Under the pieces are notes generated by a model, which made no database searches, was not told the origin of the DNA, and saw only the letters and a program-made list of their open reading frames with translations. This document shows, in pieces, positions 17,332 to 40,123 of a stretch of 64,000 bases of DNA (the stretch's first letter is position 1; the number at the start of each line of letters is the position of its first letter). The translations under genes and the position numbers were made by a program. This stretch comes from an uncultured delta proteobacterium. GTDB lineage: Bacteria; Desulfobacterota; RBG-13-43-22. Where the stretch lies: NCBI GenBank assembly GCA_963743305.1, contig CAVUPH010000013.1:230903-294902 (forward strand), in the 5' to 3' direction.

Positions 17332-17365
17332 GGTTTCCATCGACTGGTCTGGAAAAAGGAGCGAA

Positions 17366-19432: not shown

Positions 19433-19831
19433 TTATTCCAAATTATTTGTCTTAAAAGCTGTGGTATCAGAATAATAAAGTATGGTGCCGTTCCAGCCCA
19501 CGGCGAAGACATCGTTTCCAGAACTCCCCCAGATGCCATAAAGGTTTTCAGTTGTTCCGCTGGTCATGGGGGACCAGGCGCTGCCGTTGTAATGGAGGAT
19601 GGTGCCGTACCCGCTCACAGCGAAGACATTTGTTCCTGAATTTCCCCAAATACCTCTCAAGGAATTCCCTTGGGGTAATGGATTTTGCCACTTCCATTCC
19701 CCGCCCGCTGGTGGAATAGTATGGCTATCTTTGAGGATCAACGGGAGGTACACCGGGGAGTCGCCTTGTACGATAGAATCAGAAAAAGGCGCCAGGATTA
19801 AAAATAGGAGAAAGAAGACCTTCTTTTTCAT
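19433..19831 (-). CDS. Short secreted beta-propeller-repeat protein with VYLPLILK motif right after the signal peptide
   Basis: Signal peptide, then WQNPLPQGNSLRGIWG..NVFAV...GTILHY repeated twice. Only two blades, so possibly truncated. Confidence 0.7.
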   Translation of the reverse strand: MKKKVFFLLFLILAPFSDSIVQGDSPVYLPLILKDSHTIPPAGGEWKWQNPLPQGNSLRGIWGNSGTNVFAVSGYGTILHYNGSAWSPMTSGTTENLYGIWGSSGNDVFAVGWNGTILYYSDTTAFKTNNLE

Positions 19832-20036
19832 TATTCTCCCCCATGCAAAACCTAATCAATGGTTAGACAAGAATTTCTAATAATAAGATGAGGGGAAGTA
19901 TAAAATAAGCCAAATGAAGGGGCAAGTAGAAAAAATAAGAGGAGGGGAAAACGGCTCTTAACAGCCAATGATCACGTCGCCCTGGCCTGCAGCACACGGT
20001 GCTGTGGCGGTGGAGCACGGCGACATCTTTTCTAGG

Positions 20037-20070
20037 GGGAAGGGAACGGAATGGTGGCCGTTCCCTTCCC
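20037..20070. terminator. Strong hairpin downstream of the YWTD-like gene
   Basis: GGGAAGGGAACGG-N8-CCGTTCCCTTCCC, a 13-bp perfect stem with no clear U tract on the minus strand. Confidence 0.55.
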
Positions 20071-20077
20071 TGTCATG

Positions 20078-22283
20078 TCAGCGGAGCAGCAGCGGCAAGT
20101 ACAGCAGATTGCGGAGGTCGAGCGCGATAGCCCAGGGGTCGCCCAAAGACCCATTCAAGTTGCCGAGATCAACGCCACCCGACCCGTCCAGGTTGGCCCG
20201 CACGATCTTGCGGTTCAGGCGGCTGGTGATATACATCTGGTCATGGGCTAAGTCCAGTGCGATGCCAACAGGGTTACTGAGGAAACCGCCCGGGTTGCCG
20301 AGGTCGGTGCCACCCGACCCGTCCAGGTTGGCCCGCACGATCTTCTGGTTGCCGGAACTCGCGATATACATTTTGCCGCCCGTCAAGTCGAGCGCGAGAT
20401 AATTGGGTTCGTTGAGGAAACCGCCGGGGTTGCCGAGGTCGGTGGCGCCCGTGCCGTCCAGATTGGCCCGCACGATCTTGTGGTTCGCACGGCTGACGAT
20501 ATACATCTGGTTATGGGCCAAGTCCAGCGCGATGCCGATCGGGTTGAGGAGGAAACCGCCGGGGTTGCCGAGGTCGACGGCGCCCGACCCGTCCAGATTC
20601 GCCCGCACGATCTTGTGGTTAAAAAAGTTTGCCACATACATCTTGCCGCCTGCCAGGTCGAGGGCCACGTCTGCGGGAAGATTCAGAAATCCACCCGGGT
20701 TGCCGAGGTCGGTTGGGCTGCTGCCGTCCAGGTTGACCTGTACGATCTTGTGGTTGATAGAGCTCGCCACATACATCCTGCCGTTCGCCAGATCCAGCGT
20801 GACGCCGGCCGGCTCATTGAGCAAGCCGCCAGGATTTCCCAAGCTGGCGCCGTTGGTGCCGTCCAGGTTAGCCCGGCTTAGGTTGCCTCCTATGGTAAGG
20901 TTGGTGACGTACAGCTGACGCCCGTAGATCGGCACATTGACGCTGACGGTATTGGTGCAATCGTTGTTGCTTTCGTTGCTCTCGGCTACCCGGTTGTCGG
21001 GGTCGGCGCGGCAGACGCCGCCGGTCGGATTAATCAGTGTCCCCGTCGCATTCGGCCTAACGTTGAACAACACGTCGAACCTGCCGGAAGAGGCGTTTAA
21101 GGTGACGGTTCCACCGGTTCGGTGCAGGTGAGCTCATTGGCGGCAAGGCTGCAATGGATGTTTCCGCTGTTGGTGACATTGTTGGTGCTTGTCACTGTTG
21201 GCGTGCCATAGGTCGCTCCGGCGGGCAGGTTGTCCCGCACCAGTACCTGGCCGCTGAAAAAGGACGCGGGCGCAGTGCCGGTGTTGACCACCAGGAGCGT
21301 CCAGTTGAAATCGCCGCCGCTGGGCAGGCCGCCGCCGATAGTGTTCGTCATGGTCGCTTTAGGTCCGGTGCCAGGTCCAGTGCGATGCCAACTGGGGCAT
21401 TGAGGAATCCGCCCGGGTTGCCAAGGTCGGTCCCGCCCGTCCCATTCAGGTTCGCCCGCACAATGCGATTAGTGTTCGTGACATACATCTTGCCATTTGC
21501 CAGGTCGAGGGCAATGCCGCGAGAGTTGTTGAGGAATCCGCCGGGGTTGCCGAGATCCTGTGGGCTGCTGCCGTCCAAGTTCGCCCGCACGATCTTCTGG
21601 TTACCAATACTTGTGACATACATTTTGCCGTTTGGGAGGTCCAGCGCGATGGCATATGGGCTATTGAGGAATCCGCCGAGGTTGCCGAGGTCCTGCGGGT
21701 CGCTGCCGTCCAGGTTCGCCCGCGCGATCTTGTTGTCAGAGAAGTTCACGACATACATTTTGCCATTGGCGAGGTCCAGTGCGATGCCAACTGGGCTACT
21801 GAAGAATCCGCCGGGGTTGCCGAGGTCCTGCGGGCTGCTGCCGTCCAGGTTCGCCCGCACGATCTTTTTATTTCCTAAGCTGGTCACATACATCTTGCCG
21901 CCTGCCGAGGTCCAGCGCGATACCAACCGGGCTACTGAGGAATCCGCCAAGATTGCCGAGGTCCTGCGGGCTACTGCCGTCCAGGTTCGCCCGCACGATC
22001 TTGCTGCCAGTAGCTCACCACATACATCTTGCCGCCTGCCAGGTCCAGCGCGATGCCTTGAGCATCAGAGAGTAGGCCGCCCGGGTTGCCGAGATCGGTG
22101 CCCCCCGCGCCGGTCAAGTCCGCGCGGATGATCTTGCTGTTATTGAAATTTGCAATATACATCTGGGCGGCAAAAAGAGGCGTCACCGATGCGATCCAGG
22201 CGAGGAACGCCAAGGCGGTCAGCAGGGTAATCCGGAGCTTTCCGCAGGCCCGGAAGAGTTAGAAAAGCATTCGATGTGATCAT
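20078..22283 (-). pseudogene. Secreted protein: two YWTD/LDLR-B-like propellers around a DUF11/CARDB-like Ig domain; frameshifted; C-terminal LYLPLLLR
   Basis: About 44-aa repeats GIALDLANGKMYV...KIVRANLDGS...DLGNPGGFL in ORFs 21971-22213, 21348-21950 and 20078-21073. Middle segment WTLLVVNTG...DNLPAG...VAESNESNN. ATG at 22283 with GGAGG. Confidence 0.8.
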
Positions 22284-22361
22284 GGGGATCCTCCCTTCGG
22301 AATAACTGGTTGGGTTATCTGTTCACCCGAGGCCTCTTAAAACATCCTATCCCACTCCAGG

Positions 22362-23624
22362 TCACGGCCGAAGGAGGAGGGGCAGGAAAATGGAGTACTG
22401 GGCGCCAAGCTCCCCGCCCCGCACGGGCCAGGCATAGTAGCGAGCGTTGAATTTGTCTCCGGAGTTGACCGCGCCGGTAAGCAGGTCATAAGCATGGGCG
22501 GAGCGGGTATTGGATAGAAGCGACGTGGAGGACCAGAGGAAGCGATTCGCCGGGTCCGGATCGATATCGGTAAAGGGATGGCCCGCGGGGAGGGCCGGAT
22601 CATGGGCCTGGTGATCGGTCAGGCTTTGCAGTTCCACTACGTTTGGCAGGCGCCAGTCCTGGCGGCCCAAATAGTGTTCCTGGTTCAGGCATTGGACGTA
22701 CGCCAGGGCCTGGCTCCAGCTTTTCGTTTCCTGGGGCTGGCAGGCTTGAGGGCCCGGGGTTCCTACCCGGCGGGTCCAGCTCAACCCGGTGAGCCGATCC
22801 AGGACCTCTTCGCCGCTCACCGGCGAGCCCCCATCCGGATTGACAAACCGGGGATCCGGCCAGGCAACCCCGCTTCTCAATTCCCCGTCCTGACCCGTGC
22901 CGGGGCAGTCAATCGGGTAATAGGGCGATACCCAATAATAGCATTGGGTTTGTCCCGTAAGGGGCAGGGAAACAACCCCATTTCCCCCCGGAACCGCACC
23001 CCCGCCCCGAACCGGCCAGACCACCGAGTCTTGATCCGCGCCTTTAATAGTGTGATTCAGGGGCAGGAGGTAATAGGGAAGGCCGTAAAAGACCTTATCG
23101 GGACTTTTTACGTTGGTGGTCGAGGACCAGATTTTAGAATAGGGATTGAAAATAAAACCAAATGTTTCCAGCCACTGGTCATCCCGGATCTGGCCGTCAT
23201 GGTGCAGGCTGGCCAGTTCGACCGTATTCGGCATCCTCCAGTCATCGTGATTCAGGTAGCGGGTATCGTTCAAGCACTTGACATATTCGTGAGCCGGGCC
23301 CCAGTCCTTCGACCCCCCCGTGCAAAACCCCCGGGCCGGCGAGGTAACGTCCTTGGCCCAGACGAGTCCGGTGAGCCGGTCCAGGATTTCCTCCCCGCTG
23401 ATGGGCAGGGTGCCGTCCGGATTGGTAAAACGCGGATTGGGCCAGGCCGCTCCGGTCCGGTATTCTCCATCCTGCCCGGAATTCCGGCATTCAACCTGGT
23501 ACCCCCAAACCCCGTCAAAACAGTTTACCTGCCCGGTCTTAGGCAGGCGGATCTCGGCCGCCTGACCTTCCAGGGCCAGGATGACTGTTAACAATAGGAA
23601 CGGAAACAAAATTTTCTTGTTCAT
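22362..23624 (-). CDS. Secreted tandem DUF1566 (Lcl C-terminal-like) protein; C-terminal IFLPLLLRP
   Basis: Signal MNKKILFPFLLL. Two copies of LPxTGQ..C...GQDGE...WPxPRF...DRLTGLxW...DWRxPNxxELxSL...WSST...WPVRGG. Confidence 0.88.
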   Translation of the reverse strand: MNKKILFPFLLLTVILALEGQAAEIRLPKTGQVNCFDGVWGYQVECRNSGQDGEYRTGAAWPNPRFTNPDGTLPISGEEILDRLTGLVWAKDVTSPARGFCTGGSKDWGPAHEYVKCLNDTRYLNHDDWRMPNTVELASLHHDGQIRDDQWLETFGFIFNPYSKIWSSTTNVKSPDKVFYGLPYYLLPLNHTIKGADQDSVVWPVRGGGAVPGGNGVVSLPLTGQTQCYYWVSPYYPIDCPGTGQDGELRSGVAWPDPRFVNPDGGSPVSGEEVLDRLTGLSWTRRVGTPGPQACQPQETKSWSQALAYVQCLNQEHYLGRQDWRLPNVVELQSLTDHQAHDPALPAGHPFTDIDPDPANRFLWSSTSLLSNTRSAHAYDLLTGAVNSGDKFNARYYAWPVRGGELGAQYSIFLPLLLRP

Positions 23625-23631
23625 GGAAATT

Positions 23632-25038
23632 CTACCGCACGTGCGCAGCGGGTGTCGTCGGGTTGTTTCCTGGCCGCGCACCGCTGGAGAAACCTGTGCA
23701 ACTAAATACATGCGTCTTTGCCCCCCCCGGGAAATACAGCGTTTCATCCACAGTGCCGCAGATGGTCGCGGGATGATAGGAATAGGTTCCCGCGGGGAAG
23801 CTTCCATAAAAAGTAGAGCCGCCGCCAAGGTACTTCGGACCTAGGCCCGTGCCGTAAACCTCGTAGTACATTTGACCCCCCGTTTCGTTTTCTATATACA
23901 GGGTACAAATCGCTGGCAGCGGTGACCAGGTATTCATGATCATCGGAAGGTAGAGTTTTTTTTCAAGGATGGGTGCACCCAAAACAAGGTCCAACAGTGC
24001 ACTGGTACTGCCTATGGTCAGGTTCTTGGTTCCGCTGGCGCTGCCGGTGAAGGTCACCGAGTAAGTTCCAGGCGCCATGGTTACCGGGATGGCGTACCCG
24101 CCGCTGGCGGAGGTCACCGCGTAATAGGTGCCGGCATTCGGGGTAACGGTCACTCCTCCAATCCCCTCGCCGGGGTCGTACTGACTATTGCCGTTCAAAT
24201 CGCGCCAGACGGTCCCCACGATGAATTGGTTGTAGTGGTCGGCATAGGAAGTGATCGCTTTGCAGTAGTTGCCGGTGGTCACATAGGGGCCGACACTCGT
24301 GCCGGGGTTGTTCTCATAGACCAGTGCCACCCCTACGTTGGTATAGTTGTTGGGGTCCAAGGACATGATCGCCTGACGGTGGCCACGGCCGGTCTGCATA
24401 CCGTCCGCCGTGCCACTCCCCCAGTCGATGTTCCAGGCCGCGTGGGCATTCAGGCTGCTGTCGGCGTAAGCAAAGACATTGCCGCGGACGGCTTGCCACT
24501 TAAAGCCGGCAGTATTGATGCGATCAAACTGCCCGGTGTGATCCTGAGCATCACGGGCGATCAGGTCATCCGAATGCGCCTTGGCCGCGTTGTACAAGCG
24601 CACGTCGAAGGCCGCGGGCGGCTTGGCGGAATAGCCGTTAAACTCATTCTGCAGCACCGTCGTATTGACGACAAACCAATTCCGGCCGTCGGCGATGTCC
24701 GGGTCAGTCGAGGTAGCCAGCCAGACGCCCTCCGCCGACGGGTTGGCCCGCGCCCGGTTCATCAACCACATCACCTGCTGCTCCCGGCCATCCGGGTGAG
24801 CGCCATCGGCGGTTTTATGGAGTGTCCACTCCACCGTGGGAGCGCCGAGCGATGGGTAGATCGGCGCCGGCAGACTAAGGATTTGCGCCGGGTCGAGTGT
24901 CATTGCCGGAGGATTTTCCGCCGGGCTCCGCGGCGGGTTACTCTCCTGACCGGAAGCGGTTTGGGTCCCTAAGAACGAAAAAGCAACAAGAACGACAAAG
25001 CAAAAACCGATTCGGAGGATTTTCTCAAGCTTGGACAT
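23632..25038 (-). CDS. Secreted CAP/SCP-domain plus carboxypeptidase-regulatory-like protein; internal LYLPMIMN
   Basis: Signal peptide; LMNRARANP, AAKAHSDD, GHRQAIM and NVGV (CAP); GTVWRDLNGNSQYDPGEG; a short extra domain follows the motif. Confidence 0.82.
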   Translation of the reverse strand: MSKLEKILRIGFCFVVLVAFSFLGTQTASGQESNPPRSPAENPPAMTLDPAQILSLPAPIYPSLGAPTVEWTLHKTADGAHPDGREQQVMWLMNRARANPSAEGVWLATSTDPDIADGRNWFVVNTTVLQNEFNGYSAKPPAAFDVRLYNAAKAHSDDLIARDAQDHTGQFDRINTAGFKWQAVRGNVFAYADSSLNAHAAWNIDWGSGTADGMQTGRGHRQAIMSLDPNNYTNVGVALVYENNPGTSVGPYVTTGNYCKAITSYADHYNQFIVGTVWRDLNGNSQYDPGEGIGGVTVTPNAGTYYAVTSASGGYAIPVTMAPGTYSVTFTGSASGTKNLTIGSTSALLDLVLGAPILEKKLYLPMIMNTWSPLPAICTLYIENETGGQMYYEVYGTGLGPKYLGGGSTFYGSFPAGTYSYHPATICGTVDETLYFPGGAKTHVFSCTGFSSGARPGNNPTTPAAHVR

Positions 25039-25093
25039 TCTTCTCCCTCGCTCCATGAATGCAATTTGTGAATTCCCATCTTGGATTCAAAAC

Positions 25094-25135
25094 AAAATAA
25101 AAAGCCTCCATAAGGGTCGGACCCTCTGGAGGCTT
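25094..25135 (-). terminator. Intrinsic terminator inside the 5' leader of the CAP-domain gene (attenuator candidate)
   Basis: Minus strand AAGCCTCCAGAGGGTCCGACCCTTATGGAGGC-TTTTTATTTT, with TTGACA about 120 nt upstream (25255-25260). Confidence 0.65.
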
Positions 25136-25400
25136 CACATTGGAAACGTTTGAAACTCCCACTTCATTTCCCAATCCTCAGTCAGTTGGGGTTAAGTCGG
25201 GATATTTACTTAGTAAATCAGCAGGAAAGAATCAATCGCACTATTAGGGAAAAATGTCAATAGAATTTTGAGGGAGTTTGTCCCGAGGGCCGAAAAAGGG
25301 TTAAGGATTAAAGATCAGCGGCAGGTAGGCCGGGTAGGAAAGGACCGTCGGCGGGGGCGGCGCGGCCTCTCCCCAGACCGAAAACAAACCCAGGATTTTT

Positions 25401-26296
25401 TTATTTTAAGACCATCGGCAGATACAAATAACGACTACCCTTGACATAATTGAAGACCACTTGTGAACCGCTGTCCGGGTCGGCAAATATCTTGTTCAGT
25501 CCGGCCGCAAGGAAGCTCGTATCCTGTGGTTGTCCGTAAACCCGGAGCACGTCGGCCGTGACGTTCCGGTTATAGAGCATCAGGAACGAGGAGTTGTCGC
25601 CATAGAAGGGGCTGAGGGCGGACAGCGCCTTGAAGTCTGCACTGCCAAAGGTATTGTCGAAGATAATTTTGCCGCCTTCGTTGGCCAGATTGTTTGAAAC
25701 GCTGTCGGTGATGAGGCCGTTGTTTGTGATCTGGATATTCCCCAGGGCGCCGTTGGCGGTGAGGTTTAAAGTGGCGGCGGAGATAGTTCCGTTGTTTAAA
25801 ATGTAGGTTTTATTGTACTGGTCAAGAACGTTCAGGGTTCCGGAGAACTGGCCGTTGTTCTGGAGATTGGTGTAGGCCCCGTCAGTGTTAAAGTTGAGTG
25901 TACCGTTGAACGTGCTGTTGCTCAGAAAATTAATAGTCCCCCAGCCGGTGTTAGTGAGATTAAAGCCCTTTTGAAGCCGCTTGGAGACGTAATTGTCGGA
26001 TTTGAGGTTGAATATCCCGTCATAAGACCTCGTCGAAAAAGTTAAATTTCGCATTATTGTTTGAAATGACCCGGAGCCTTGGATCACCACCCGTATTCAG
26101 GAAATCAACCGTTAAACCGCTCGCCAATGCTGATCGTGCCGCCCCAAGTGACCGGCTGCGAAATAAGGAACTGTGTGTTCTCGATAATCGTCAGTGTATT
26201 CCCCTGGCCAGGCAGGTCAGCGCCTGTCAGAGTGGCTGCATGAGACGTCAGCGGAGACAGGACCAGGACCAGGACGAATAGAAGTATCGGTTGCAT
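25401..26296 (-). pseudogene. Secreted Asn/Gly/Thr-rich (beta-helix-like) protein, one frameshift; C-terminal LYLPMVLK
   Basis: ORF 26105-26296 (signal peptide, AGGAGG RBS) continues in ORF 25401-26090. Confidence 0.7.
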
Positions 26297-26400: not shown

Positions 26401-28463
26401 TTACTTCAGGCCTGCTTTGCGCAGGACGTCGGCCAGGCGATCTTTTGAAGATTGACTGAAAGGAGCTCCTTTTATAAACCGTTCCAGGGAGAACTTGGGA
26501 TCGATCCTCAGGACTTCTGCCCCCTCGGCGCGCGCCTCATCTTCGCGACCTATCGACCCATACTCACCAGCCAGCCCCAGGTGGGCCATCAAGTGGTCGG
26601 GGCCATAGATTTGGAGCATCTTCTTGTATGTGGCTATGGCTTCCTCATGTTGGCCAAGCATCCCATATGATAGAGCCAACATACCCAAGACTTGGCTGTG
26701 TATGGGAATGGGGCTGAGACGAAGGGATTTCTGGAGCATGGGAATGCCCTCTTGAGGTCGACCAGAGAAGCTGAGCCCACTTCCTAAGGCCCAATAGGCT
26801 GAAGCGGAATTGGGGCTGAGGGATATGGCTTTTTCCGCCTCTGAGATGGCCTTATCGAACTCCCTGAGATATATATAAGGAAAAGCCAGATTGGCATGGA
26901 CGGATGAATTGGAGTCATCCAGGGCGATGGCCTTTTTCCCCAGCTCGACGGCTCGCTGCAAAGACTCTTTGGGCGACCCGCTCGCGCCAATAATGACCAA
27001 AGCGATGTGGGCAGTGGATAGAATAGAATATGCCATTGGGTATTCGGGGTCAAGGGCGATGGCCTCCTCCAGCAATTGCCGGGCTCTTTCCACCCGCTCC
27101 CTGTCCTGCGAACCGGCTTTTAGCTGAATCGCCTCCATTACTTTCAAATAGGCATCGAGGTTCTTGGTCCCCTTTTCGTAGAGGCGCGCCATTTCCCCCT
27201 TGGTTAATTTCACCTGCACCGCCGACAGAACTTTCATCGTGATTTCATCCTGTAATTTCAGGATGTCCTTTAGATCCCGATTATACTGCTCTGAGAATAG
27301 GTGACGTCCGTTCAGGGCATCGATGAGCTGGGCCGTAATCCGCACCCGTTTCCCCTCCTGCTGGACGCTGCCTTCAATCACATACCTTACTCCCATCTCC
27401 TCGGCAACCTGCTTGACCTTTACCGGTTTACCCTTGTAGGTAAAGGTGGAATTTCGGGCAATCACAAAAATATTGTCGAATTTGGAGAGGCCGTTAATGA
27501 TCCCCTCAACGAGCCCATCGCAGAAATACTCTAATTCTTTTTCACTGCTCATATTGGTAAAAGGCAGCACGGCAATAGAGGGCTTATCAGGTAGCGGAAA
27601 GGCCAGCTTATCTTTTGAAGCAACTTCAATTTTGGGAGCTGGAGGAGGAGCAGGTTGGGTGGCTTTTTCAGGCAATGGAGGCGTTGCCTTTTCTTTGGGT
27701 GCCGGCTCTACTGAAGGGGCGGGAGAGGTAGGAACAATTGCCGAGGGTTTCTCGGATGGATCGGCTGTAATTTTATCTTTAGAAACTATCTCTGGTTGAG
27801 TAGCAGGGGGCCAATAAAATTTCCAGATTACCAGGGCAGCGACTATCGCGATGGCAGCCGCTGCCAAACCCAGGGTGGTCTTCGGCCATGGTCTGGTCCC
27901 GGCCTTTTCCTTTTCGATCACTCTGCCGACGGCCTCCGGATCCGTCACGACCCGATACACCCGCACCGGTTTGGCGATGTTTTTAACGGCCTGTTCCCCT
28001 AAATATTCATATCCCAGCGGCAGCTTGTTTTCCACCTGATCGTAAGCGGTCCCGGAGATGCAGATGCCCCCGGCTTCGGCCAGGCCCTCCAGGCGGGCGG
28101 CGATGTTGACACCGTCCCCTAAAATCGTATCGCCTTCCTCGACCACATCCCCGAGATTGACCCCGATTCGAAACTTCAGACGCCGATCTTCCGCAACCTC
28201 TTATTCCTCTCCTTGAGCTCCTTCTGTATCTCCACCGCACAACGAACGGCGTCCACCACGCTGGCGAATTCTGCCAGGATGCTGTCTCCCCCGGTTCCAA
28301 CCACCCGTCCCTGATGCTGTGCTATGAACCCGGAAATAACCTCTAAGTAGACCTTCAGGGTGCGAATGGTCCCTTCTTCATCTTCTCCCATCAGGCGGCT
28401 GTACCCTTGGACATCCGCACTGAGGATTGCTGCCAGCTTTCGTTTGACCTGATCCGGGATCAT
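26401..28463 (-). pseudogene. Class III adenylate/guanylate cyclase-TM-TolB-like-TPR protein, one frameshift near 28180
   Basis: RKLAAILSADVQGYSRLMG, GGDS, GDGVNIAARL, TM helix, Pro-rich linker, PDKPSIAVLPF, VIARNSTF, TPRs, ends LRKAGLK. Confidence 0.88.
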
Positions 28464-28554
28464 GGGATCACCTCCATGAGGGGAAGGGTCGATCAAACGA
28501 AGAGTGTCCACCTCGTGTGTGGACTCCCTTCTGGTCGACAACGGAAGTTGAAAT

Positions 28555-29104: not shown

Positions 29105-29446
29105 ATGTTAAACAATTTAAGTCCTTTTTTCGCAGTCTTCTTATTTAACCTGGTCTGGTCATCCATCGGCTTTTCTGCGGAAGTTACCCTGGCTTGGGAT
29201 CCAAATACCGAACCTGACCTGGCCGGTTATAAAATCTATATCGGGGTTCAATCGCGTCAATATTCCTGGATCCAAGATGCGGGAAATCGGACCCAAGCCA
29301 CGGTGGAGAACCTGGATAATAATATCAAATATTTCTTATCAATAACCGCCTATAATACCCAAGGAATCGAAAGCGGCGTTTCCAATGAGATAAATTACAC
29401 ACCTCCATCAAATTTCAAGAATTATCTACCAATCATATTGAATTGA
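29105..29446 (+). CDS. Small secreted single fibronectin type III protein; C-terminal NYLPIILN
   Basis: Signal peptide, VTLAWDPNTEPDLAGYKIY...YFLSITAYNTQGIES..SNEI. Confidence 0.85.
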   Translation: MLNNLSPFFAVFLFNLVWSSIGFSAEVTLAWDPNTEPDLAGYKIYIGVQSRQYSWIQDAGNRTQATVENLDNNIKYFLSITAYNTQGIESGVSNEINYTPPSNFKNYLPIILN

Positions 29447-31717: not shown

Positions 31718-31830
31718 TTCCGCCAGGCCCGTTTAGTGTCCCCGGGACTCTTCATCATGTTATGGTCCGGGGGATCGAAGGAATGGAAAATGAGGTCGGG
31801 CCGCGCCAACTCGTACCGGTTTTCCCTCAA
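31718..31830 (+). pseudogene. N-terminal remnant of a Y1 (IS200/RAYT-like) transposase
   Basis: Reads RQARLVSP / GTLHHVMVRGIE across one frameshift, matching the MPRxARLDxPGxLHHVxxRGIE start of this family. Confidence 0.55.
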
Positions 31831-31839
31831 TGACGAAAT

Positions 31840-33095
31840 CCGCACTAAGCGCCATCACCGGCCAGACGCCTCCCAGCGGGCTTCCGTAGGTCCGAACAAC
31901 CACTTTAGCACCGGCCGCAGGGATTGAAACCTTCTCGCCTAATGTCCCGCTTGACCAGAGACACCAGCCATTCTGGATAGCTCCGCCAGCAGTCCTAACG
32001 GCCGCATCCTCGGCTTCGATCACCAATACCACCTCCGTGCAAAGCTGGCCGCTATCGTGTGATTTGTGATCACGTTGCTGAAAGAGTAGGTGGTCACCGC
32101 TCCCACAGAGGTTCCATCGACCAGTACTCTGGCTACGCGGTAGCCTGAACTTGGTGTAACGGTAAAGGTCTTGCTGGCGCCATAACTGACGGAGACCGCA
32201 CCCGATGGGGAGATCGATCCACCGGTTCCGGCAGAGGCGGTGATGGTGATGGTGTTGGTGTTGGCGGTAAAGCTGGCGGCAATGGTGTGATTTGCCGTCA
32301 CGTTGCTGAAGGTGTAGGTGGTCACGGCGCCCACGGAGATTCCATCGACCAGTACGCCGGCCACGCGGTAGCCTGAGTTCGGTGTGATGGTAAAGGTCTT
32401 GCTGGCGCCATAACCGATGGAGACCGCCCCCGAAGGGGAGATCGATCCGCCGGTTCCGGCGGAGGCGGTGATGGTGAACGTTGAACCGGAAGTTCCCGCC
32501 TGGGTGACGGTGAAAATCTTTCCCGCCATGGTGGAGCTGGCTGTTCTGGAGGATGAACTGGTATTGGCGGACATAGAATAGCCCACCGTCCCATTTCCGG
32601 TGCCATTGCTTCCCGAAGTGATGGTCATCCAGGAAGCACCGCTGCCGGCGGTCCAGGGGCACGTTGATTGAGTGGTCACGCTTACGGTGCCCGTTCCTCC
32701 GCGATGCGGTAAAGCTCTGGCTTGAAGGGGAAATGGAGTAAGTACAGGTGCTCGTGCTCACCTCACCGGAATAGCGCGCTCTCAAGGTTCGAGGTGTTAT
32801 AGGCGGTGGCGGCAAAATAATAGGTCAGCCCATCGGTCAGACCGGTTACCGTGGACGTCGTAACCTTTCCAACATCAAGAACCCAGCCGTAATTTTGGGA
32901 GGCCGTACCATAGTAGATCTTATAGCCGGCCAGGGTCGGCTCGGTGTTGGCGTCCCAGGCCAGGCTCACCTGGGCTGAATGCCCGGTACCCGCAGGTACG
33001 ATCAAGGCCATACCCAGTAACAGGGTAACCAGTTGAAAATAATGGACTAATATTCTGGAATAATTGCGCGCCCGTGGGGCGCGTGAAATGAACAT
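31840..33095 (-). pseudogene. Secreted Fn3-BACON-2x InlB-B-repeat-like protein, frameshifted and 3'-truncated
   Basis: VSLAWDANTEPTLAGYKIYYG (Fn3); CPWTA..ASWMTITSG (BACON); two roughly 75-aa copies of ITASAGTGGSISPSG...VLVDGxSVGAVTTYxFSNV..NHTIAASF; runs into the transposase remnant. Confidence 0.78.
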
Positions 33096-33183
33096 AGCAA
33101 TGCCTCCTGCCGAGGTTCTTGCTTCTGAGCGGAACCCGGTACTCAAAAACCCTCGATCATAGTTGTTTTTTCACCTAATACAC

Positions 33184-33199: not shown

Positions 33200-33647
33200 C
33201 GGAGTTGTTTCGATTAATTTATTGAAATTACTTAATGTTTTACTCTTGAAAGGATTGTTGCTATTAGGATTGAGAAGGCTTTCACATACAGTCCAGGTGA
33301 CGGGAACCAAGCGTACCCGAATCTTTACTGAGTCCCTGTTCTCACTTCCACCCGGGAGCACCGCGTCCACAGAGACGCGGAGGGCACAATAGAAGAGGGA
33401 GAGGGAAGAGGGAAGCAAAAGATAAATGAGGGGAGAAGGGAGAGGGGAGATACCGGCAAAAGAAAACCAGCTCGGCCTCCGGCGGCGGTCCCTCGTGGGA
33501 GATCAGACCGGCGATATTGGCCGAGCCTTCATCCGGCCGAATTTAATCAAATGCCATCCCAGCGGCTTGTGGTAGTTGGCCGTTGCCGGAGAGGTAGAAA
33601 TAAGAGCAGGATGCTTCTATAAGGATCGCCGGAGTCAGGACCAGAAC

Positions 33648-33877
33648 TTAAAAGGCTAAACTCAAACGGAGCGCCTGATTGACCTCCTGCATTTTTTCCG
33701 GAGTGATGGCGCCGAGTTTTTTTTCTAGACGCTCTTTGGAAACGGTTAGAATTTGGCTGGTTTTGACCATACATCATTCTGGATGATTAAGGCCGGCCTT
33801 TTCCCAACCTGTTCGCTACCCCGAGCCGGGTTCCAATTGACCAGCCAGACCTCTCCCCTTTGCGTGGACCTCGTCAT
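33648..33877 (-). pseudogene. mazF: MazF/PemK toxin with internal deletion (not in ORF track)
   Basis: MTRSTQRGEVWLVNWNPARGSEQVGKRPALIIQND is joined out of frame to MVKTSQILTVSKERLEKKLGAITPEKMQEVNQALRLSLAF*. Confidence 0.8.
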
Positions 33878-34107
33878 AGGAGGACTTCCTTTTGAGCAGC
33901 CAGGGATCGTTCCGCCGTCTCCTCATCCTCCCGGGCCATTTCCCGGTAACCTTGAGCCATCAGACTTTCGGTTTTTTCTTTTAGCCAGAGGGTAAACGCT
34001 TCCTGAGCTAATTGGCTCCGGGCCACTCGAAAACGTCGTGAAGCCTGATCAACGGCCGCGTATAAACCTTCATCAATGGTGACGCTAATTTTTTTCTTGG
34101 TCTTCAT
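33874..34107 (-). CDS. Ribbon-helix-helix antitoxin (NdoAI/MazE-like)
   Basis: KISVTIDEGL..AVD...RSQL...MAQGYREMA; ATGA overlap with mazF. Confidence 0.8.
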   Translation of the reverse strand: MKTKKKISVTIDEGLYAAVDQASRRFRVARSQLAQEAFTLWLKEKTESLMAQGYREMAREDEETAERSLAAQKEVLL

Positions 34108-34307
34108 GGGGGGGGGATTTCTTAGGCATACTTTTTGTCGGATATTATATCATACAAAATGTCTTGGCAAATTTTATTCAAAAGGGCATGGCTCCAAGTT
34201 CTGGGACTGGATTGGGGCCAGGCCATTGTGGCCCTGGACGGCTGGCCGGAAAGGGAGAAAATCCCTTGCCGGGGCCGGAAAAGGCCCCGTCGTAGGAGGT
34301 CCGGGAA

Positions 34308-34676
34308 ATGCTCACTGGGCGAACCAGGGTAAACCCGGAAAGTTTGGTTTTCCCCACCTTTGACGGTCGGGAGCATGCCGACACGCCGACCACCTTCAGG
34401 GACGCGGTAGAAGCTATGGGTTTCAACAAGGGGATTACCGATCCGAGGCAAAAGGTTGTTTTTCATACCCTGCGCCATAGCTACGCTTCATGGTTGGCCG
34501 AAGCCGGGACGGATATTTGCACCATTGGGAAACTGCTTGGATATTCCACGGTTCAAATGAGCGCGCGCTATGCTCACTTAGGAGCCGGGGCCATGCAGGA
34601 GGCCGTTAATCAGTTGCCGAGCCTTACCACCGGGGGCCAGGTCGGGCAGGGGAAGGTTTTCACGCTGAAGAAATAG
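34308..34676 (+). pseudogene. C-terminal fragment of a tyrosine recombinase/integrase
   Basis: FHTLRHSYASWL, LLGYSTVQMSARYAHL (HxxR and catalytic Tyr present; second His changed to Tyr); N-terminal domains absent. Confidence 0.82.
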
Positions 34677-34700
34677 ACAATTGCCCAAAAGTAAAACGGC

Positions 34701-34729
34701 TTGCATTATACTAATAATTAGTATAGGAT
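34701..34729 (+). promoter_or_regulatory. Promoter with operator palindrome of the toxin-first TA operon
   Basis: TTGCAT-N17-TAGGAT overlapping the inverted repeat TATACTAAT-A-ATTAGTATA (34707-34725). Confidence 0.65.
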
Positions 34730-34735
34730 TGATTT

Positions 34736-35014
34736 ATGACATGGACGGTTAAAGAAAGGCGGTCTCTGAGCAAACGGGTCAGGAAATTGCCTGAAAATGT
34801 CCAAAATCTGCTCATCGCCCTGAAAAAGGATATGGAAGTGAACGGACCTATTCGGGGAAATTGGCCAAATTTTAGCGCCTTATCTGATAACCGATACCAT
34901 TGTCATTTGAAGAAAGGCCGTCCTACCTTTGTGGCTATATGGGAGGTTATGGATAAGGAAATCAAATTGATTGAGGTGATATATGCAGGAACGCACGAAA
35001 AAGCACCCTATTGA
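34736..35014 (+). CDS. RelE/HigB-superfamily toxin-like protein
   Basis: 92 aa basic protein: KLPENVQ, YHCHLKKGRPTFVAIWEV, YAGTHEKAPY; lies upstream of an HTH gene. Confidence 0.7.
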   Translation: MTWTVKERRSLSKRVRKLPENVQNLLIALKKDMEVNGPIRGNWPNFSALSDNRYHCHLKKGRPTFVAIWEVMDKEIKLIEVIYAGTHEKAPY

Positions 35015-35336
35015 ATCCGTTGAACTGCGGTTCTTGGGTCCCATTGTGAACATGGCAAAAGCCATTGAAAGGTTGAAACCTCTGGGATTTGTGGACACAT
35101 TGGATTCTGTACCTTGGCGCGAGGCATACCCCGAATATTCGGAAGGGCAGCTTATCGGCAAAGCCCTTGCCGGTGCACGATACCGGGAAGGATTGACGCA
35201 GATTCAGCTTTCGGAAATGACCGGAATACCTCAGCGACATATTAGCGAAATGGAAAACGGAAAACGCCCAATTGGTAAAGAAATGGCAAAGCGCCTTGGA
35301 AAGGTGCTTAATATCAGCTACAAAATTTTTTTATAG
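34983..35336 (+). CDS. XRE-family HTH antitoxin (HigA-like)
   Basis: LAGARYREGLTQIQLSEMTGIPQRHISEMENGKRPIG. Confidence 0.85.
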   Translation: MQERTKKHPIESVELRFLGPIVNMAKAIERLKPLGFVDTLDSVPWREAYPEYSEGQLIGKALAGARYREGLTQIQLSEMTGIPQRHISEMENGKRPIGKEMAKRLGKVLNISYKIFL

Positions 35337-35418
35337 GGCATGCAGAGGCACCATGCTGACCACCAGGGACCAGGCTGAGGCCGGAAAGGTTGTTAGGAAC
35401 AAATGGGGGATTGCCCCT

Positions 35419-35640
35419 ATGGAAAAGAAAAAATTCAATAAATTGGTGAAAAGCATAAAGCTGCGCAAAAAAGGCCGAACCTGACCACATCCCGCCTGGC
35501 CGAGTTGACCAGGATTCCCCAACGGTACCTTTCCATGATGGAACACGATAAGCGGACTATCGGGAAGAAAAATGCTCACCTGCTGGTCAAGGTCCTGAAA
35601 GTGGATTCCCGGGTTTTTCCTTACTGCGCTTTCCGGGGAT
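35419..35640 (+). pseudogene. Degenerate second XRE HTH paralog
   Basis: From about 35481 reads LTTSRLAELTRIPQRYLSMMEHDKRTIGKKNAHLLVKVLKVDSRVF, colinear with the preceding antitoxin but out of frame with any start. Confidence 0.6.
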
Positions 35641-35664
35641 AGTTTTCGCGAACCGATAAAGAGA

Positions 35665-35952
35665 TCAAACCTGCATAGGCTCAGCGTGCAGTTTGACTCC
35701 CAAGGCACGCAACACCTTCAAAACCGTGTCATAACGGGGTCTGGCCCCGGGCGCCAGCGCTTTATACAGGCTCTCCCGTCCCAACCCCGTTGCACGGGCA
35801 AGTTGCGTCATGCCTCGGGCTCGTGCCACGTTTTTTACTGCTACCAGAAACATGTCGGGGTTTGGATCCTCCAGTGATGCGGAAAGGTATTCTGCTATGG
35901 TTTCCTCATCGGTGAGGTAATCGGCAGAATCAAAGGGGGAAAAATTCGTCAT
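35665..35952 (-). CDS. Addiction module antidote (HI1420-like HTH)
   Basis: PFDSADYL..EETIAEYL, VARARGMTQLARATGLGRESLYKAL...PRYDTVLKV. Confidence 0.9.
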   Translation of the reverse strand: MTNFSPFDSADYLTDEETIAEYLSASLEDPNPDMFLVAVKNVARARGMTQLARATGLGRESLYKALAPGARPRYDTVLKVLRALGVKLHAEPMQV

Positions 35953-35961
35953 GGTATTCTC

Positions 35962-36255
35962 CTATTTCAAGGCGCGCGCTATCTCAATGGCGTGACTGAA
36001 ATCTCGTCTCTGTGAAGATTTATCGCCGCCGATAAGCAACAGGTATACCACATCAGCGCGACGAGTGAAGTATACCCGATAACCAGGCCCAACATGAATC
36101 CGCATCTCGTAGATCCCTTTACCCACAACCGCCCAGTCTCCAAAATTTCCCGCAATTGCCGCATCGATCCGCTGAACGATGCGCGCCTTGGCCACTTTGT
36201 CCTTGAGGCCGGAAAGCCAACTGTCGAACTCATCAGACCAGAAGAGAAGGTGCAA
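35962..36255 (-). CDS. Addiction module killer (HI1419-like RelE/ParE)
   Basis: FDSWLSGLKD..AKARI, GNFGD, EMRIHVGPGYRVYF, LLIGGDKSSQ. The start is uncertain (TTG with no RBS). Confidence 0.85.
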   Translation of the reverse strand: MHLLFWSDEFDSWLSGLKDKVAKARIVQRIDAAIAGNFGDWAVVGKGIYEMRIHVGPGYRVYFTRRADVVYLLLIGGDKSSQRRDFSHAIEIARALK

Positions 36256-36729
36256 TAAGACTTATCAACACTATGAGCGCGACAAGTATGGATTTTTCCA
36301 GAAACGTCTTCTTCTCTCCACCGCGTTCCGTGTCACCCATGACAGATTTGCCTTTCATTATGTTGAACGAATAATAGCCGGACGGCTATCGGTTTGGTGC
36401 TCTAAGTTATTCTAATGATAAATATTATCATCCCAAATGTTTTAAAAATACCCCCTAAGTGAATAGGTAGTCAAGATTGAAGTTTTCTTCGAAAAAGTTC
36501 CTTCCACTCCGTAGCGCTGGGACCAGGCCACCGGGCAGAACGTCGCACCACGGGCCAGACAGATAGGAGAAAATAGTAGTGGAAACCTGACCGGCCTTTC
36601 AATTTGGTGGGGCCGGGCCGAGGCCAGAAAAAAAGAAGGAAACCCCTTTCCGAGACCCAAAAAGGCTTCCGCCATCCTTAAAGTGGGGACAGAATGCGGA
36701 CAAAAAACCGGTGGACCTCACAAACAGGA

Positions 36730-36763
36730 AAGGGGCTGAAGCCGCGATTGGCTTCAACCCCTT
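36730..36763 (-). terminator. Hairpin downstream of tRNA-Leu
   Basis: AAGGGGCTGAAGCC-N6-GGCTTCAACCCCTT. Confidence 0.6.
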
Positions 36764-36771
36764 GTTTTTAC

Positions 36772-36859
36772 TGGTGCCGGAGGTCGGAATTGAACCGACA
36801 TGACCGCGGGGGTCGGGGGATTTTGAGTCCCCTGCGTCTACCAGTTTCACCACTCCGGC
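36772..36859 (-). tRNA. tRNA-Leu(CAA)
   Basis: GCCGGAGTGGTGAAACTGGTAGACGCAGGGGACTCAAAATCCCC...GGTTCAATTCCGACCTCCGGCACCA; long variable arm, encoded CCA. Confidence 0.95.
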
Positions 36860-36941
36860 GTTTAGGTGGATTTTGCAGGAAAGTTAATTGATTTTAATGA
36901 AAAGATCTTGGAATTGTCAAGAAAAAATGGTTAAAAAAATA

Positions 36942-36970
36942 TTGACAAGGGTTTGTAATAAAAATATAAT
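36942..36970 (+). promoter_or_regulatory. Consensus sigma-70 promoter for tRNA-Ala (divergent promoter for tRNA-Leu at 36891-36920)
   Basis: TTGACA-N17-TATAAT on the plus strand; TTGACA-N18-TAAAAT on the minus strand. Confidence 0.8.
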
Positions 36971-36988
36971 AATTATTTTATCAGTGAC

Positions 36989-37064
36989 GGGGCTGTAGCT
37001 CAGCTGGGAGAGCGCATGACTGGCAGTCATGAGGTCGTCGGTTCGATCCCGATCAGCTCCACCA
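36989..37064 (+). tRNA. tRNA-Ala(GGC)
   Basis: GGGGCTGTAGCTCAGCTGGGAGAGCGCATGACTGGCAGTCATG...GGTTCGATCCCGATCAGCTCCACCA, 76 nt. Confidence 0.96.
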
Positions 37065-37073
37065 GGAATAATC

Positions 37074-37113
37074 AAAGGGGTTAATCCGATCATTCGGATT
37101 AACCCCTTTTTTT
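37074..37113 (+). terminator. Intrinsic (probably bidirectional) terminator
   Basis: AAAGGGGTTAATCCGA-TCAT-TCGGATTAACCCC-TTTTTTT, between convergent genes. Confidence 0.85.
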
Positions 37114-37150
37114 GCCTAAGGATTTGTTCTTTACCCGCAGGTTTCAGTTT

Positions 37151-40123
37151 TTATCTCAAAATCAACGGCAGCCAGAGCTTGTATTGGATAAAGGTCACTT
37201 CCACCCATTTGTACCGATTAAGCCCGGTGAAGGTGCAGGTGGCCTGACCGGTGTCGTTTCCGGTTTCCGTTCCTCCCGCCGCCGAGCAGGTCCCTTTCCA
37301 GGAGGCATTAACCGCCGGATCGGCCGTGGCGGTGATGACCAGACCGGCGCCGGCGGAAAGGACGGACGAGGTCATCTCTTTTAATGCTGGATAGATGTAA
37401 TTGATGCCTCCCAGGTTCGAGACCACCGAACCCGACCCGTTACCGATGGATTTAGCCGTGACCCCCAGATATTTGATCTCCACGTAGCCCACCTCCAGGG
37501 ATGGCGGGGGACCGGAAACCTGGTCTTCATAGACCGCCAGGAAGCTGCCCGGGCCGTAGGCCACCTTGGGAAAATCCTGATCGTTGGGCGCATTGATGAC
37601 CGGGAAATTGGCTCCCTGCATTGTGCCGTCCTCCTTGATCCACTGGCCGTAGATGTTCCGCCCGGCGACGGCATCGCGACTGTCCTGCCAGACGGCTAGA
37701 AATCTCTGGGCCAGGGGATGGAAGGCTAACGAAACGTATGTTTGTTCGTCACCCGTGTTTGAAATCGGAAATATGGCCCCGATGAATGTCTTGTCGAATT
37801 TGAACAGCCTTCCATAAATGTCCGGGTTGCCGGAAGCCGAATCCTCCCAGGCTACCAGGTATTGCATAGTAGAGGGATTGAAGGCAGCGGTGGGGTATAT
37901 CTGATCTCCCGCCCGGTTTTCCGTGATGGAGAAATTGCCGCCGTCGAGCGTGCGGTCGGAGTTGATCACCTGGCCGTAAATTTCTCCCTCGCTTGCGGCA
38001 AAATTCCGATCATCCACCCAGACCACCAGGAACCGTTTGTTGATGCTGTCAAAAGCCACCCCGGGCTCAGCTTGGGAGCTCCCAATTTCGGCACTGACCG
38101 GAAACGCGTCCGCCCCCTGGGCGACGTCTTTCACAAAAAAACGTCCCAGGACATCCTCCTCATTGGTCGGCAAAAATTTATCGTTCCAGACCACCAGGGT
38201 CTGATGGCCGGTATCGTCGTAGGCGATGGTCGGTCTCGATTCATCTACAGCGAGCCGGTTGGAAACGGTGGAATTCCAGCCATCCAGGGTCCCGTCCGGG
38301 TTAACCAGTTGTCCCTGGATATCTTGGTCATTGGTGGAGCCGTTGAAGATGTCCCAGACCACTACAAATTTTTTGTTGAACGCATCGTAGGCCACAGAGG
38401 ACAACAATCGTTTATAGGATTTCTGTTCGCTGATCTGAAAATCGGCCGCGAAAGGCGCTCCATCCGGGTTGATGAGTCGCCCATTGAGCAAGGAGCCGCC
38501 GCTCCCGTCCGCAATGCCATAAACCGCCAGGTAGCGTTGGTTCACCGGGTCATAGGCCAGGTTGGGGTCCCCCCGGCCGGTAACATTGGCGAAAGGAGAA
38601 TTGTCGAACTCATAGGCCCCCATATCCACCGTGGTATCGATGATTCGCGACCGGCCGTCGCGGTCGGAACTGGTGGGGTACAAGGCATAAAGGAACGTAC
38701 CTTCAGGGTTTTCGGTACCGGTGTTTTTGCAGGGGGAGCCGTCGGTCAGGCGGAAATTGGCGCCCGCAAAGTTGACGAAGGCCGGATCGGTGCTGATGTT
38801 GTTGCTTCCGGTGCCACTCCAGCCGTACTGATAGTCGGAGTAATCCACCGAGGTCGTTCCGCTAGTACTCGTATAAACGGGGAATTGGCCGGCGGTGCCA
38901 TTGTCCCAGAAAATCGAGTTGTAAACCGTCAAAGCCTGCACCCTGTTATCAACAGCCATACCGACCAGTCCGTCCGAACTTCCGTTGGATCTGTTTTTAA
39001 CAAAGGTGGAATTGAAAACCTTAACGGTTCTCGGCGACTCCGGACTTGGATCATAAATGGCTATTCCTCCTCCGCGGCCCCAAACCCCTGATTGCCCAGC
39101 GGCATTGTCGGCGATAAGGCTGTTGTAAATCTCGGCGTTGGCGTCCCAGATATGGATGCCTCCGCCCCAGAACCAAGACCGTTTCCCGGAAATGGTGCTG
39201 TTGATCAAACGTAGGTTGCCGCCGTACCCATGGTCTATTGCGCCGCCGCCGGACAGGGTTCCATCCCCTGTAATGGTGCTGTTGCGGATGACGGGCGACA
39301 CCCGGCTGAAAATATCGCCGCCCCCATCATAACATTTACTGACTCCTGGAGTGGTACAACCCACGGTGTATTCCAGTATTTTATTATTATTGAAGGTGCA
39401 GCGTTCCACCAGTGGTTCCAGGGCGTTGGTGAGGGGGGTGACGTAAGTAAAATAGATGGCCCCCCCGCCCCGGGCCGCGTTGTTGGAGAAGACGCTGTCG
39501 TAGATTTCAGCATGCCCATTGGTAAACAATCCACCACCGGAGGTGTTGGATGCCCCGGCCACGCCATTATTGCTCTGGAAGAGACACCTTCTAACAAATA
39601 GGTTGATGGTACCGCCGTTGGCGCAGTTGGAACGAAGCCCGGCTCCGTGAATGCCGTTTACGTTCGCCAGGCCGTTCAAGAAGGCCGTGTTTTCAATTGT
39701 AAATTGGACGGTGACCCCGGCGGTCTCACTCCGTACCTCAAAAACCCGATTTAAATTCTGACCGGTCAGGGCGGTCATCGAAGCCGGATCCATCCCCCGG
39801 TACTGGGCGGTAAATCCGGCATTCCAGCCGCCGGTCAGTTTCACCTCGTCATTCTGGGAGGCGTTATAGGAGAAGGGACCGCCCGAGGCGATATAGGACC
39901 CGGCCAGTAAATAAATGGTGTCCGCTTCCCCGTTGCCCTGGGACGCCGTCAGGGCCGTCTGCAAAGTGGTCGGGGAGCCGGGGCTGGCGCCGCTCCCCCC
40001 TCCGGCCGGTGAAACGTACATCGTAGCCGCCCAGATAGACGGCCCTGATAAAATCAAAGAAAGAAAAATAGTAAACCTGACCGCTCGGATCGGAATTTGG
40101 AATACCCGCCTCAGATTTCTCAT
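37151..40123 (-). CDS. Large secreted protein: pectin-lyase-like beta-helix, choice-of-anchor-Q-like segment, about 6 propeller-type repeats, Ig-like domain; C-terminal LWLPLILR
   Basis: Signal then ATMYVSPAGGG; GGG(I/A)/FxxN repeats; DPAFV..NFRL..GSPC...DMGAYE; repeats P.VAYD....FLVVW.D....DIYGQ. ATG at 40123 after GGAGG. Confidence 0.85.
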   Translation of the reverse strand: MRNLRRVFQIPIRAVRFTIFLSLILSGPSIWAATMYVSPAGGGSGASPGSPTTLQTALTASQGNGEADTIYLLAGSYIASGGPFSYNASQNDEVKLTGGWNAGFTAQYRGMDPASMTALTGQNLNRVFEVRSETAGVTVQFTIENTAFLNGLANVNGIHGAGLRSNCANGGTINLFVRRCLFQSNNGVAGASNTSGGGLFTNGHAEIYDSVFSNNAARGGGAIYFTYVTPLTNALEPLVERCTFNNNKILEYTVGCTTPGVSKCYDGGGDIFSRVSPVIRNSTITGDGTLSGGGAIDHGYGGNLRLINSTISGKRSWFWGGGIHIWDANAEIYNSLIADNAAGQSGVWGRGGGIAIYDPSPESPRTVKVFNSTFVKNRSNGSSDGLVGMAVDNRVQALTVYNSIFWDNGTAGQFPVYTSTSGTTSVDYSDYQYGWSGTGSNNISTDPAFVNFAGANFRLTDGSPCKNTGTENPEGTFLYALYPTSSDRDGRSRIIDTTVDMGAYEFDNSPFANVTGRGDPNLAYDPVNQRYLAVYGIADGSGGSLLNGRLINPDGAPFAADFQISEQKSYKRLLSSVAYDAFNKKFVVVWDIFNGSTNDQDIQGQLVNPDGTLDGWNSTVSNRLAVDESRPTIAYDDTGHQTLVVWNDKFLPTNEEDVLGRFFVKDVAQGADAFPVSAEIGSSQAEPGVAFDSINKRFLVVWVDDRNFAASEGEIYGQVINSDRTLDGGNFSITENRAGDQIYPTAAFNPSTMQYLVAWEDSASGNPDIYGRLFKFDKTFIGAIFPISNTGDEQTYVSLAFHPLAQRFLAVWQDSRDAVAGRNIYGQWIKEDGTMQGANFPVINAPNDQDFPKVAYGPGSFLAVYEDQVSGPPPSLEVGYVEIKYLGVTAKSIGNGSGSVVSNLGGINYIYPALKEMTSSVLSAGAGLVITATADPAVNASWKGTCSAAGGTETGNDTGQATCTFTGLNRYKWVEVTFIQYKLWLPLILR

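Follow-up and report, generated by a model that had tools for sequence, protein, structure and literature searches.

The 64 kb window analysed here belongs to contig CAVUPH010000013.1 of a metagenome-assembled genome (MAG; assembly GCA_963743305.1) and contains genes for exported-looking proteins which share a short peptide, the YLP-box. Searching the six-frame translation of the window with the regular expression [YFW]LP[LMIV][ILVM][LMIV][RKN] yields seven matches, all within 19730-37174, and no other match in any frame. The sites, together with the small domain following one of them, are (ORF, open reading frame; aa, amino acids):

19730..19750, minus strand: site 1, V-YLPLILK, 10 residues past the signal-peptide-like N-terminus of ORF 19433-19831 (132-aa propeller-like fragment)
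20081..20101, minus strand: site 2, L-YLPLLLR-stop, end of ORF 20078-21073, the terminal part of an NHL-repeat gene that begins near 22213 and is frameshifted
22368..22388, minus strand: site 3, I-FLPLLLR-P-stop, end of a double Lcl_C/DUF1566 protein, gene 22362-23624
23932..23952, minus strand: site 4, L-YLPMIMN, internal in a CAP-like protein (23632-25056), with 99 residues after it that hold a C-terminal β-sandwich
23701..23910, minus strand: small β-sandwich domain after site 4, recognised from a phmmer family and an AlphaFold2 model
25404..25424, minus strand: site 5, L-YLPMVLK-stop, end of ORF 25401-26090, the signal-peptide part lying in another frame (26105-26296)
29423..29443, plus strand: site 6, N-YLPIILN-stop, end of a lone fn3 protein (29105-29446)
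37154..37174, minus strand: site 7, L-WLPLILR-stop, end of a 990-aa protein (37151-40123)

All seven sites proposed in a first-pass annotation of this DNA are present, at or a few bases from the positions given there. They fit the consensus Φ-[YF]-L-P-Φ-Φ-Φ-[KRN]; five of them are located 0-1 residue before the stop codon, site 1 is N-terminal and site 4 internal. By chance, 0.11 matches are to be expected on average (maximum 2 when the residues of the six-frame translations are shuffled 200 times) compared to the seven observed. Since the codons used for the same residues vary among the seven copies, it is the peptide that is conserved and not a DNA repeat, which rules out a repeat or the end of a mobile cassette as source of the motif.

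According to Pfam, the carriers belong to unrelated families (NHL, Lcl_C/DUF1566, CAP with an SdrD_B-like part, fn3, or none), in agreement with the earlier proposal of a motif portable between otherwise unrelated exported proteins. No Pfam match was obtained for the 98 residues after site 1 or for the C-terminal half of the 990-aa protein. In the lone fn3 protein, the fn3 match stops at residue 95 and the motif begins at residue 107. The proposed lack of a transmembrane (TM) helix or basic tail is likewise borne out, as five tails end 0-1 residue past the motif. Signal-peptide-like N-termini, read by eye and previously claimed for all seven proteins, are directly apparent in five of the tagged genes, and in the other two only if these are read across frameshifts; the NHL gene alone spans 22213 to 20078 in at least four frames. 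In total, four minus-strand genes are split across frames, i.e., 20078-22213 (NHL), 25401-26296, 26401-28541 (adenylate cyclase-TPR) and 31760-33146 (fn3-BACON-Flg_new_2), reflecting either assembly indel errors or pseudogenes. The last of these encodes an exported-looking protein with the YLP tail absent from every frame read. Its N-terminus (32763-33146, minus strand) and the tagged lone fn3 protein (29105-29446, plus strand) have in common the fn3 subtype LAWD.NTEP.LAGYKIY.G, and judging from this resemblance the two proteins are likely paralogues.

The motif had been regarded as undescribed. However, NCBIfam release 20.0 contains two curated YLP-box models, NF050076.1 (sort_motif_YLP; 11 positions, cut-off 15 bits) and NF053834.1 (ultrashort_CTERM; 10 positions, cut-off 10 bits), which were compared by name and product line; the latter reads 'YLP-box putative sorting motif-containing protein' for both and offers no label beyond 'putative sorting motif'. 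The accompanying statement that no characterised pathway exists stands, as no paper on the motif was found in the full-text literature, subscription journals being outside the reach of that search. Full-length window proteins match neither a YLP-box model nor any other sorting-signal model of NCBIfam (E ≤ 10). When segments of 20-27 aa are excised around the sites, four of the seven match the YLP-box models and two reach a curated cut-off: site 1 (27-aa segment) scores 13.2 bits on NF053834 and 13.3 bits on NF050076, and site 4 scores 13.4 and 12.9 bits, respectively. Sites 5 (13.8 bits) and 7 (14.3 bits) match NF050076 below its cut-off, and the excised segments of sites 2, 3 and 6 match neither model. 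As a control, none of 30 C-terminal segments of other window ORFs matches either YLP-box model. The seven sites are best read as divergent instances, in a Desulfobacterota lineage, of a YLP-box already catalogued by NCBI curators.

Whether the peptide belongs to the fold of its carrier was examined in the DUF1566 protein (site 3). Its AlphaFold2 model, based on 70 aligned sequences, reaches a predicted local distance difference test (pLDDT) of 90.2 and a predicted template modelling score (pTM) of 0.89; residues 410-422, i.e., linker plus tag, remain below a pLDDT of 50 and without secondary structure beside a domain at about 95. The DUF1566 domain normally closes at WPVRGG, with 34 of the 120 best homologues ending no more than 12 residues past the WPVR motif, and in the window protein a 10-residue linker and the tag are added past this domain end. 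Among the same 120 homologues only three possess a YLP-like tail, two being close relatives and the third an independent protein (P0114). Other homologues end with dockerins (PF00404 at the same place in P0030, P0063 and P0070), with a recurrent '...APMVGKK' tail or with TM-like ends. Within the 90 % cluster of the DUF1566 protein, all 14 listed members (window copy excluded) retain the tail, one of them as FLPLIIHP, and the relatives P0002 and P0162 (80-82 % identity) have FLPLLS variants. In this protein, the only one modelled at a domain end, the tag is therefore predicted to lie outside the folded domain.

As an observation apart from the YLP-box, another recurrent C-terminal tail, '...RRVLEVIAPMVGKK', closes 10 of the 120 best DUF1566 homologues (P0034, P0037, P0049, P0053, P0054, P0055, P0076, P0090, P0100 and P0104) and may represent another uncharacterised tag.

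The first-pass annotation had itself named the possibility that the peptide is merely the last strand of each carrier's own domain. For the DUF1566 protein this is rejected, given the disordered tail in the AlphaFold2 model; it may still apply to the NHL protein, the tail of which, as read from the sequence, aligns with the strand 'MYI.S' that recurs in the NHL repeats before it. The NHL protein also contains a CARDB-like stretch, 'NPTGGVCRADP...ESNE.NNDC' (window 20900-21073), that recurs in a Chloroflexota protein from an Anaerolineae MAG (L085:1-357), where YLPLILR follows directly in place of the NHL repeats.

The 990-aa protein (site 7) displays alternative ends at one position. Among 29 homologues, six have the YLP tail and one a variant of it. 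A homologue with 77 % identity retains LWLPLILR, and four homologues (53-60 % identity) lack the last Ig-like domain, still ending with FLFLPLIL[KR]. An Anaerolineae protein with only 28 % identity (P0299) ends with VYLPLVLR; this protein and the unrelated DUF1566 protein P0114 carry the tag independently. At the same position, other homologues possess TM-plus-basic tails (P0292 by regular expression; P0294, P0306 and P0310 by eye), ends of the CFI-box-CTERM type (P0296 by its NCBI name; P0291 and P0293 alike) or, in P0302, the tail (PF18962) of the type IX secretion system (T9SS). Such alternation of anchors at one position among homologous proteins would be expected for a module that serves anchoring or sorting. 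The choice_anch_Q model scores 24.2 bits on the 990-aa protein, slightly below its cut-off of 25; both in this protein and in carriers from Chloroflexota, weak matches to this model are located upstream.

The β-sandwich after site 4 allowed the selection of a protein set by domain and not by motif. When the 125 residues around and past site 4 were used as a phmmer query, 110 of 1.84 billion representatives matched (E ≤ 1e-3; P0313-P0422), sharing a β-sandwich of about 80 residues with usually four cysteines (4-Cys domain), of which the window copy retains those at AIC, TIC and FSC. A YLP-like site is present in 87 of the 110 representatives compared to 13 of 110 reversed-sequence controls. From these 87 sites the consensus [VIL]-[YF]-L-P-[LIM]-[VI]-[MLI]-[KRN] is derived, with proline conserved in all 87, leucine in 79 and the aromatic first position in 75. 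The 15 residues following the site are rich in proline and threonine (35 % vs. 16 % overall), and the distance between site and domain is 10-28 residues, or about 104 with an fn3 domain in between. Many members are small proteins in which signal peptide and spacer are followed by YLP-box, linker and domain. An N-terminal site (P0375) passes NF053834 at 11.5 bits. All three clusters bearing an organism name are of the class Anaerolineae.

AlphaFold2 predicts a full seven-strand sandwich for the window domain (segment residues 34-103; pLDDT 94-98) and a coil for the box (pLDDT 73-78). The 99 residues after site 4 match no Pfam family (E ≤ 10); DUF6759 appeared as a sub-threshold Atlas lead (0.88; 17-36 % of cluster members) that was not confirmed by Pfam, and a Foldseek search of the domain against the PDB gave no matches at E ≤ 1e-3, returning generic β-sandwiches only.

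Sites that are not C-terminal also occur among the loci of the genome scan described below: in L046 the box is found at residue 49 with a Pro/Thr linker behind it, in L055 it is flanked by a Pro/Thr linker and a VWA domain, and in L010 it separates two glycosidase-like units. The box therefore marks the ends of mature modules, with the internal copies looking like fusions. A purely C-terminal signal is not supported, since the motif also occurs directly past signal peptides and between modules, with only 5 of the 7 window sites being C-terminal. This distribution speaks against a C-terminal mechanism of the sortase type or of the type of the T9SS C-terminal domain (CTD) and for a position-independent recognition peptide. 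In summary, the YLP-box is a stand-alone linear module of 8-10 residues, Φ-[YFW]-L-P-Φ-Φ-Φ-[K/R/N], joined through a short or Pro/Thr-rich linker to adhesin-like or enzyme-like proteins exported by Sec, at either mature terminus, or located at the junction of two fused modules.

To assess the distribution of the motif, GTDB species genomes were scanned for exact YLPLILR, back-translated with CTN codons for leucine and CGN codons for arginine only, resulting in at least 120 loci. The 120 loci listed comprise 24 from Chloroflexota and 96 others. Among the listed Chloroflexota loci, 22 sites have at least 70 open codons upstream, and 17 of these lie 0-4 residues before a stop; for the other listed loci, the corresponding numbers are 30 and 0. 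The remaining in-frame matches among the listed loci belong to unrelated conserved families or to short ORFs in non-coding frames. The cargo of the listed Chloroflexota carriers is diverse (GH44, amidase plus MAM, β-helix, peptidase C25, PKD, Flg_new, FG-GAP, Calx-beta, BNR and fn3), and one listed locus contains two adjacent tagged genes. Of the 17 Chloroflexota C-terminal tails, 14 match the curated models, 9 with at least 15 bits on NF050076 and 12 with at least 10 bits on NF053834. Genome sample, cargo set and model matches agree with the initial remark that such tails are frequent in Chloroflexota.

The organism of the window looks like a member of a Desulfobacterota lineage and not of the Chloroflexota, judging from HisS, the best named relatives of which are a 'Deltaproteobacteria bacterium' (85 %) and Thermodesulfobacteriota (64-67 %); the deltaproteobacterial host assumed at the outset is thereby upheld. 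From this placement a diderm envelope may be presumed; no envelope marker was found among the 40 other window ORFs annotated by Pfam.

The tagged genes are interspersed with genes for a cyclase, a histidine kinase and toxin-antitoxin pairs as well as an integrase fragment and tRNAs. Part of this intervening region (34308-37061) resembles what is left of an integrated element:

34308-34676: integrase C-terminal fragment
34736-35336 and 35665-36255: toxin-antitoxin-like pairs
36775-36859, minus strand, and 36989-37061, plus strand: tRNA genes

Directly upstream of the first tagged gene lies a trehalose cluster (12303-19247, plus strand) with two alpha-amylase-family genes, DUF5752 and a TreT-type trehalose synthase. 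The frameshifted adenylate/guanylate cyclase-TPR gene at 26401-28541 (minus strand) has a paralogue at 57077-58999 (plus strand).

A peptide that is specific, exposed on linkers, present at either end of modules, interchangeable with other anchors and attached to a wide range of cargo fits a linear recognition peptide that is bound after export and thereby retains cargo at the envelope. That these sites, identified as the YLP-box, act as a position-independent docking or retention peptide is given about an even chance; the docking step taken by itself falls somewhat short of that. In this process, Sec export of the tagged cargo would leave the hydrophobic peptide exposed, and a putative envelope component, either a receptor protein or a proteinaceous layer, would bind it non-covalently by strand addition or in a hydrophobic groove. 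In this way the cargo might be retained and presented on the cell surface, as by a miniature dockerin. The more far-reaching proposal is tentative and on the whole rather unlikely: the YLP-box would be the ligand of such an envelope receptor or layer in a non-covalent display route, different from sortase-type pathways and operating in Chloroflexota and a Desulfobacterota lineage, with the module of YLP-box, linker and 4-Cys domain as one built-in part.

Several points weigh against docking. No receptor, peptidase, transporter or scaffold candidate was found by Pfam near the tagged genes among the 40 other window ORFs. Of the sorting or docking interpretation advanced earlier, portability and selection at the peptide level hold, and the machine, receptor or scaffold gene it calls for was not found in the window. 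Only two of the seven window sites reach a curated cut-off and three have no model match, with E-values being marginal (0.03-0.08) because the YLP-box models have only 10-11 positions. The tail at a domain end has been modelled in one protein only, and that of the NHL protein aligns with a repeat strand and therefore may double there as part of the fold. Restriction to Chloroflexota is the result of a small and biased sample (one peptide, restricted codons, 120 loci listed). In addition, N- and C-terminal sites might serve different ends, and a hydrophobic run of seven residues could act on lipid rather than on protein.

The main rival, which we regard as unlikely, assumes a processing site, i.e., an extracytoplasmic protease or transpeptidase cutting within or just past the YLP-box and thereby freeing domains from N-terminal anchoring, splitting fused modules, or trimming or ligating C-termini. 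The conserved L-P core with its terminal basic residue resembles enzyme recognition sites, C-terminal motifs leave 0-4 residues before the stop, K/R-R is often next after the motif in the fn3-containing 4-Cys subfamily, and internal sites lie exactly at module junctions. As far as is known, LPXTG, PEP-CTERM and other known sorting signals are all cleavage sites, which also counts for processing. However, a transpeptidase would retain cargo at C-terminal sites and lose it at N-terminal ones, a TM segment to keep the substrate at the membrane is missing, and the last position takes asparagine as readily as lysine or arginine. Moreover, Pfam annotation of the 40 window ORFs provides no candidate peptidase near the tagged genes.

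It appears improbable that the peptide is a self-sufficient hydrophobic anchor which, with no protein receptor, dips into the cytoplasmic membrane from its outer face or into some hydrophobic layer of the envelope. The seven consecutive hydrophobic residues followed by a basic or polar one would suit such a role, as would the adjoining Pro/Thr-rich spacers, which resemble wall-spanning linkers, and the mechanism is workable in principle at either terminus. On the other hand, a generic lipid anchor would not require the specificity seen in the near-invariant Leu-Pro and the aromatic first position, and the run is probably too short to span a bilayer.

Even less probable is donor-strand exchange, in which the motif of one protein would insert into the 4-Cys sandwich or another acceptor of the next, building fibres or a matrix for tagged cargo. 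The coupling of motif and 4-Cys domain in cis (87/110 vs. 13/110 in reversed controls) and the many small proteins composed of signal peptide, motif, linker and domain, a layout known from donor-strand pilins, are consistent with this idea. However, AlphaFold2 completes the seven-strand sandwich without the motif, which is modelled as coil at pLDDT 73-78, and the majority of tagged proteins, whether from the window or from the Chloroflexota sample, do not possess a 4-Cys domain.

That the peptide is no functional unit at all, but chance similarity, a DNA repeat or each domain's last strand, is scarcely credible in view of seven sites against 0.11 expected, differing codons, a DUF1566 tail disordered outside the fold, retention of the tail in 990-aa homologues that lost the preceding domain, and curated models with a control of 0/30, even if the NHL tail aligns with its own repeat strand.

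Docking by the YLP-box, if it occurs, would be of some consequence. Glycosidases, proteases, amidases and adhesin-like proteins all bear this tag of 8-10 residues, which may serve as handle for a major route of display in a phylum abundant in the environment. The envelope of this phylum is described as multilayered, with no clear outer membrane (PMC13319060). The occurrence of the tag in a Desulfobacterota MAG suggests that such a route is transferable between envelopes of very different kinds; if true, one display system would operate in both Chloroflexota and a lineage of the normally diderm Desulfobacterota. With a curated model available for the tag, it can now be asked precisely which component binds to the YLP-box or cleaves it.

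In comparison with known systems, the YLP-box resembles the LPXTG signal of sortases in being a short Pro-containing motif on Sec-exported surface proteins, often beside Pro/Thr-rich spacers, but it has neither T-G nor a C-terminal TM helix and charged tail and also occurs N-terminally and internally. The full-length window proteins match no sortase-signal model (E ≤ 10) and do not combine LPXTG with a TM helix and a basic tail. The tripartite signals of PEP-CTERM/exosortase, GlyGly-CTERM/rhombosortase, PGF-CTERM/archaeosortase and MYXO-CTERM/myxosortase occupy the same slot, considering the TM-plus-basic tails of 990-aa homologues. In contrast to these signals, the YLP-box has three aliphatic residues after the proline and no TM helix, and no NCBIfam model for PEP-CTERM and related signals matches the window proteins (E ≤ 10), in which this tripartite architecture was not found.

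A C-terminal β-sandwich of about 80 residues, as present after site 4, is reminiscent of the T9SS CTD, but the YLP-box is far shorter (five window tails consist of 8-9 residues), and Por_Secre_tail does not match the window domain after site 4 (Pfam, E ≤ 10). The β-signal of the β-barrel assembly machinery (BAM) does not agree with the observed termini (R, RP, K, N and R) nor with carriers that have soluble folds instead of β-barrels. Donor-strand systems (N-terminal extensions of the chaperone-usher type, type V pili, TasA) likewise place a short hydrophobic strand on a linker by a β-sandwich, whereas the sandwich modelled here is predicted to be complete without it and the YLP-box has a central proline and contiguous rather than alternating hydrophobic residues; with a sandwich complete at pLDDT 94-98 and an unpaired motif, the AlphaFold2 prediction speaks against membership among the donor-strand pilins. 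Comparable in proposed function is the dockerin-cohesin system, in which a portable terminal module holds diverse secreted enzymes non-covalently on a scaffold, as may be the case for the YLP-box. However, dockerins are folded, bind Ca, comprise about 70 residues and have a known partner, compared to 8-10 residues for the YLP-box, and none of the seven tagged proteins matches PF00404 (Pfam).

The closest correspondence is that to the YLP-box of NCBIfam, with the same consensus and length and, for five of the seven window sites, the same position at the end of an exported protein, as in the multidomain carriers of the models. The window sites differ in being divergent (W or F at the first position, Asn at the last and Met within) and mostly below the cut-offs, in that two of them lie elsewhere than at the C-terminus despite the name 'CTERM' of one model, and in their host, a Desulfobacterota MAG. 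The motif itself is not new; the window together with the searches demonstrates its position independence and its link to the 4-Cys domain.

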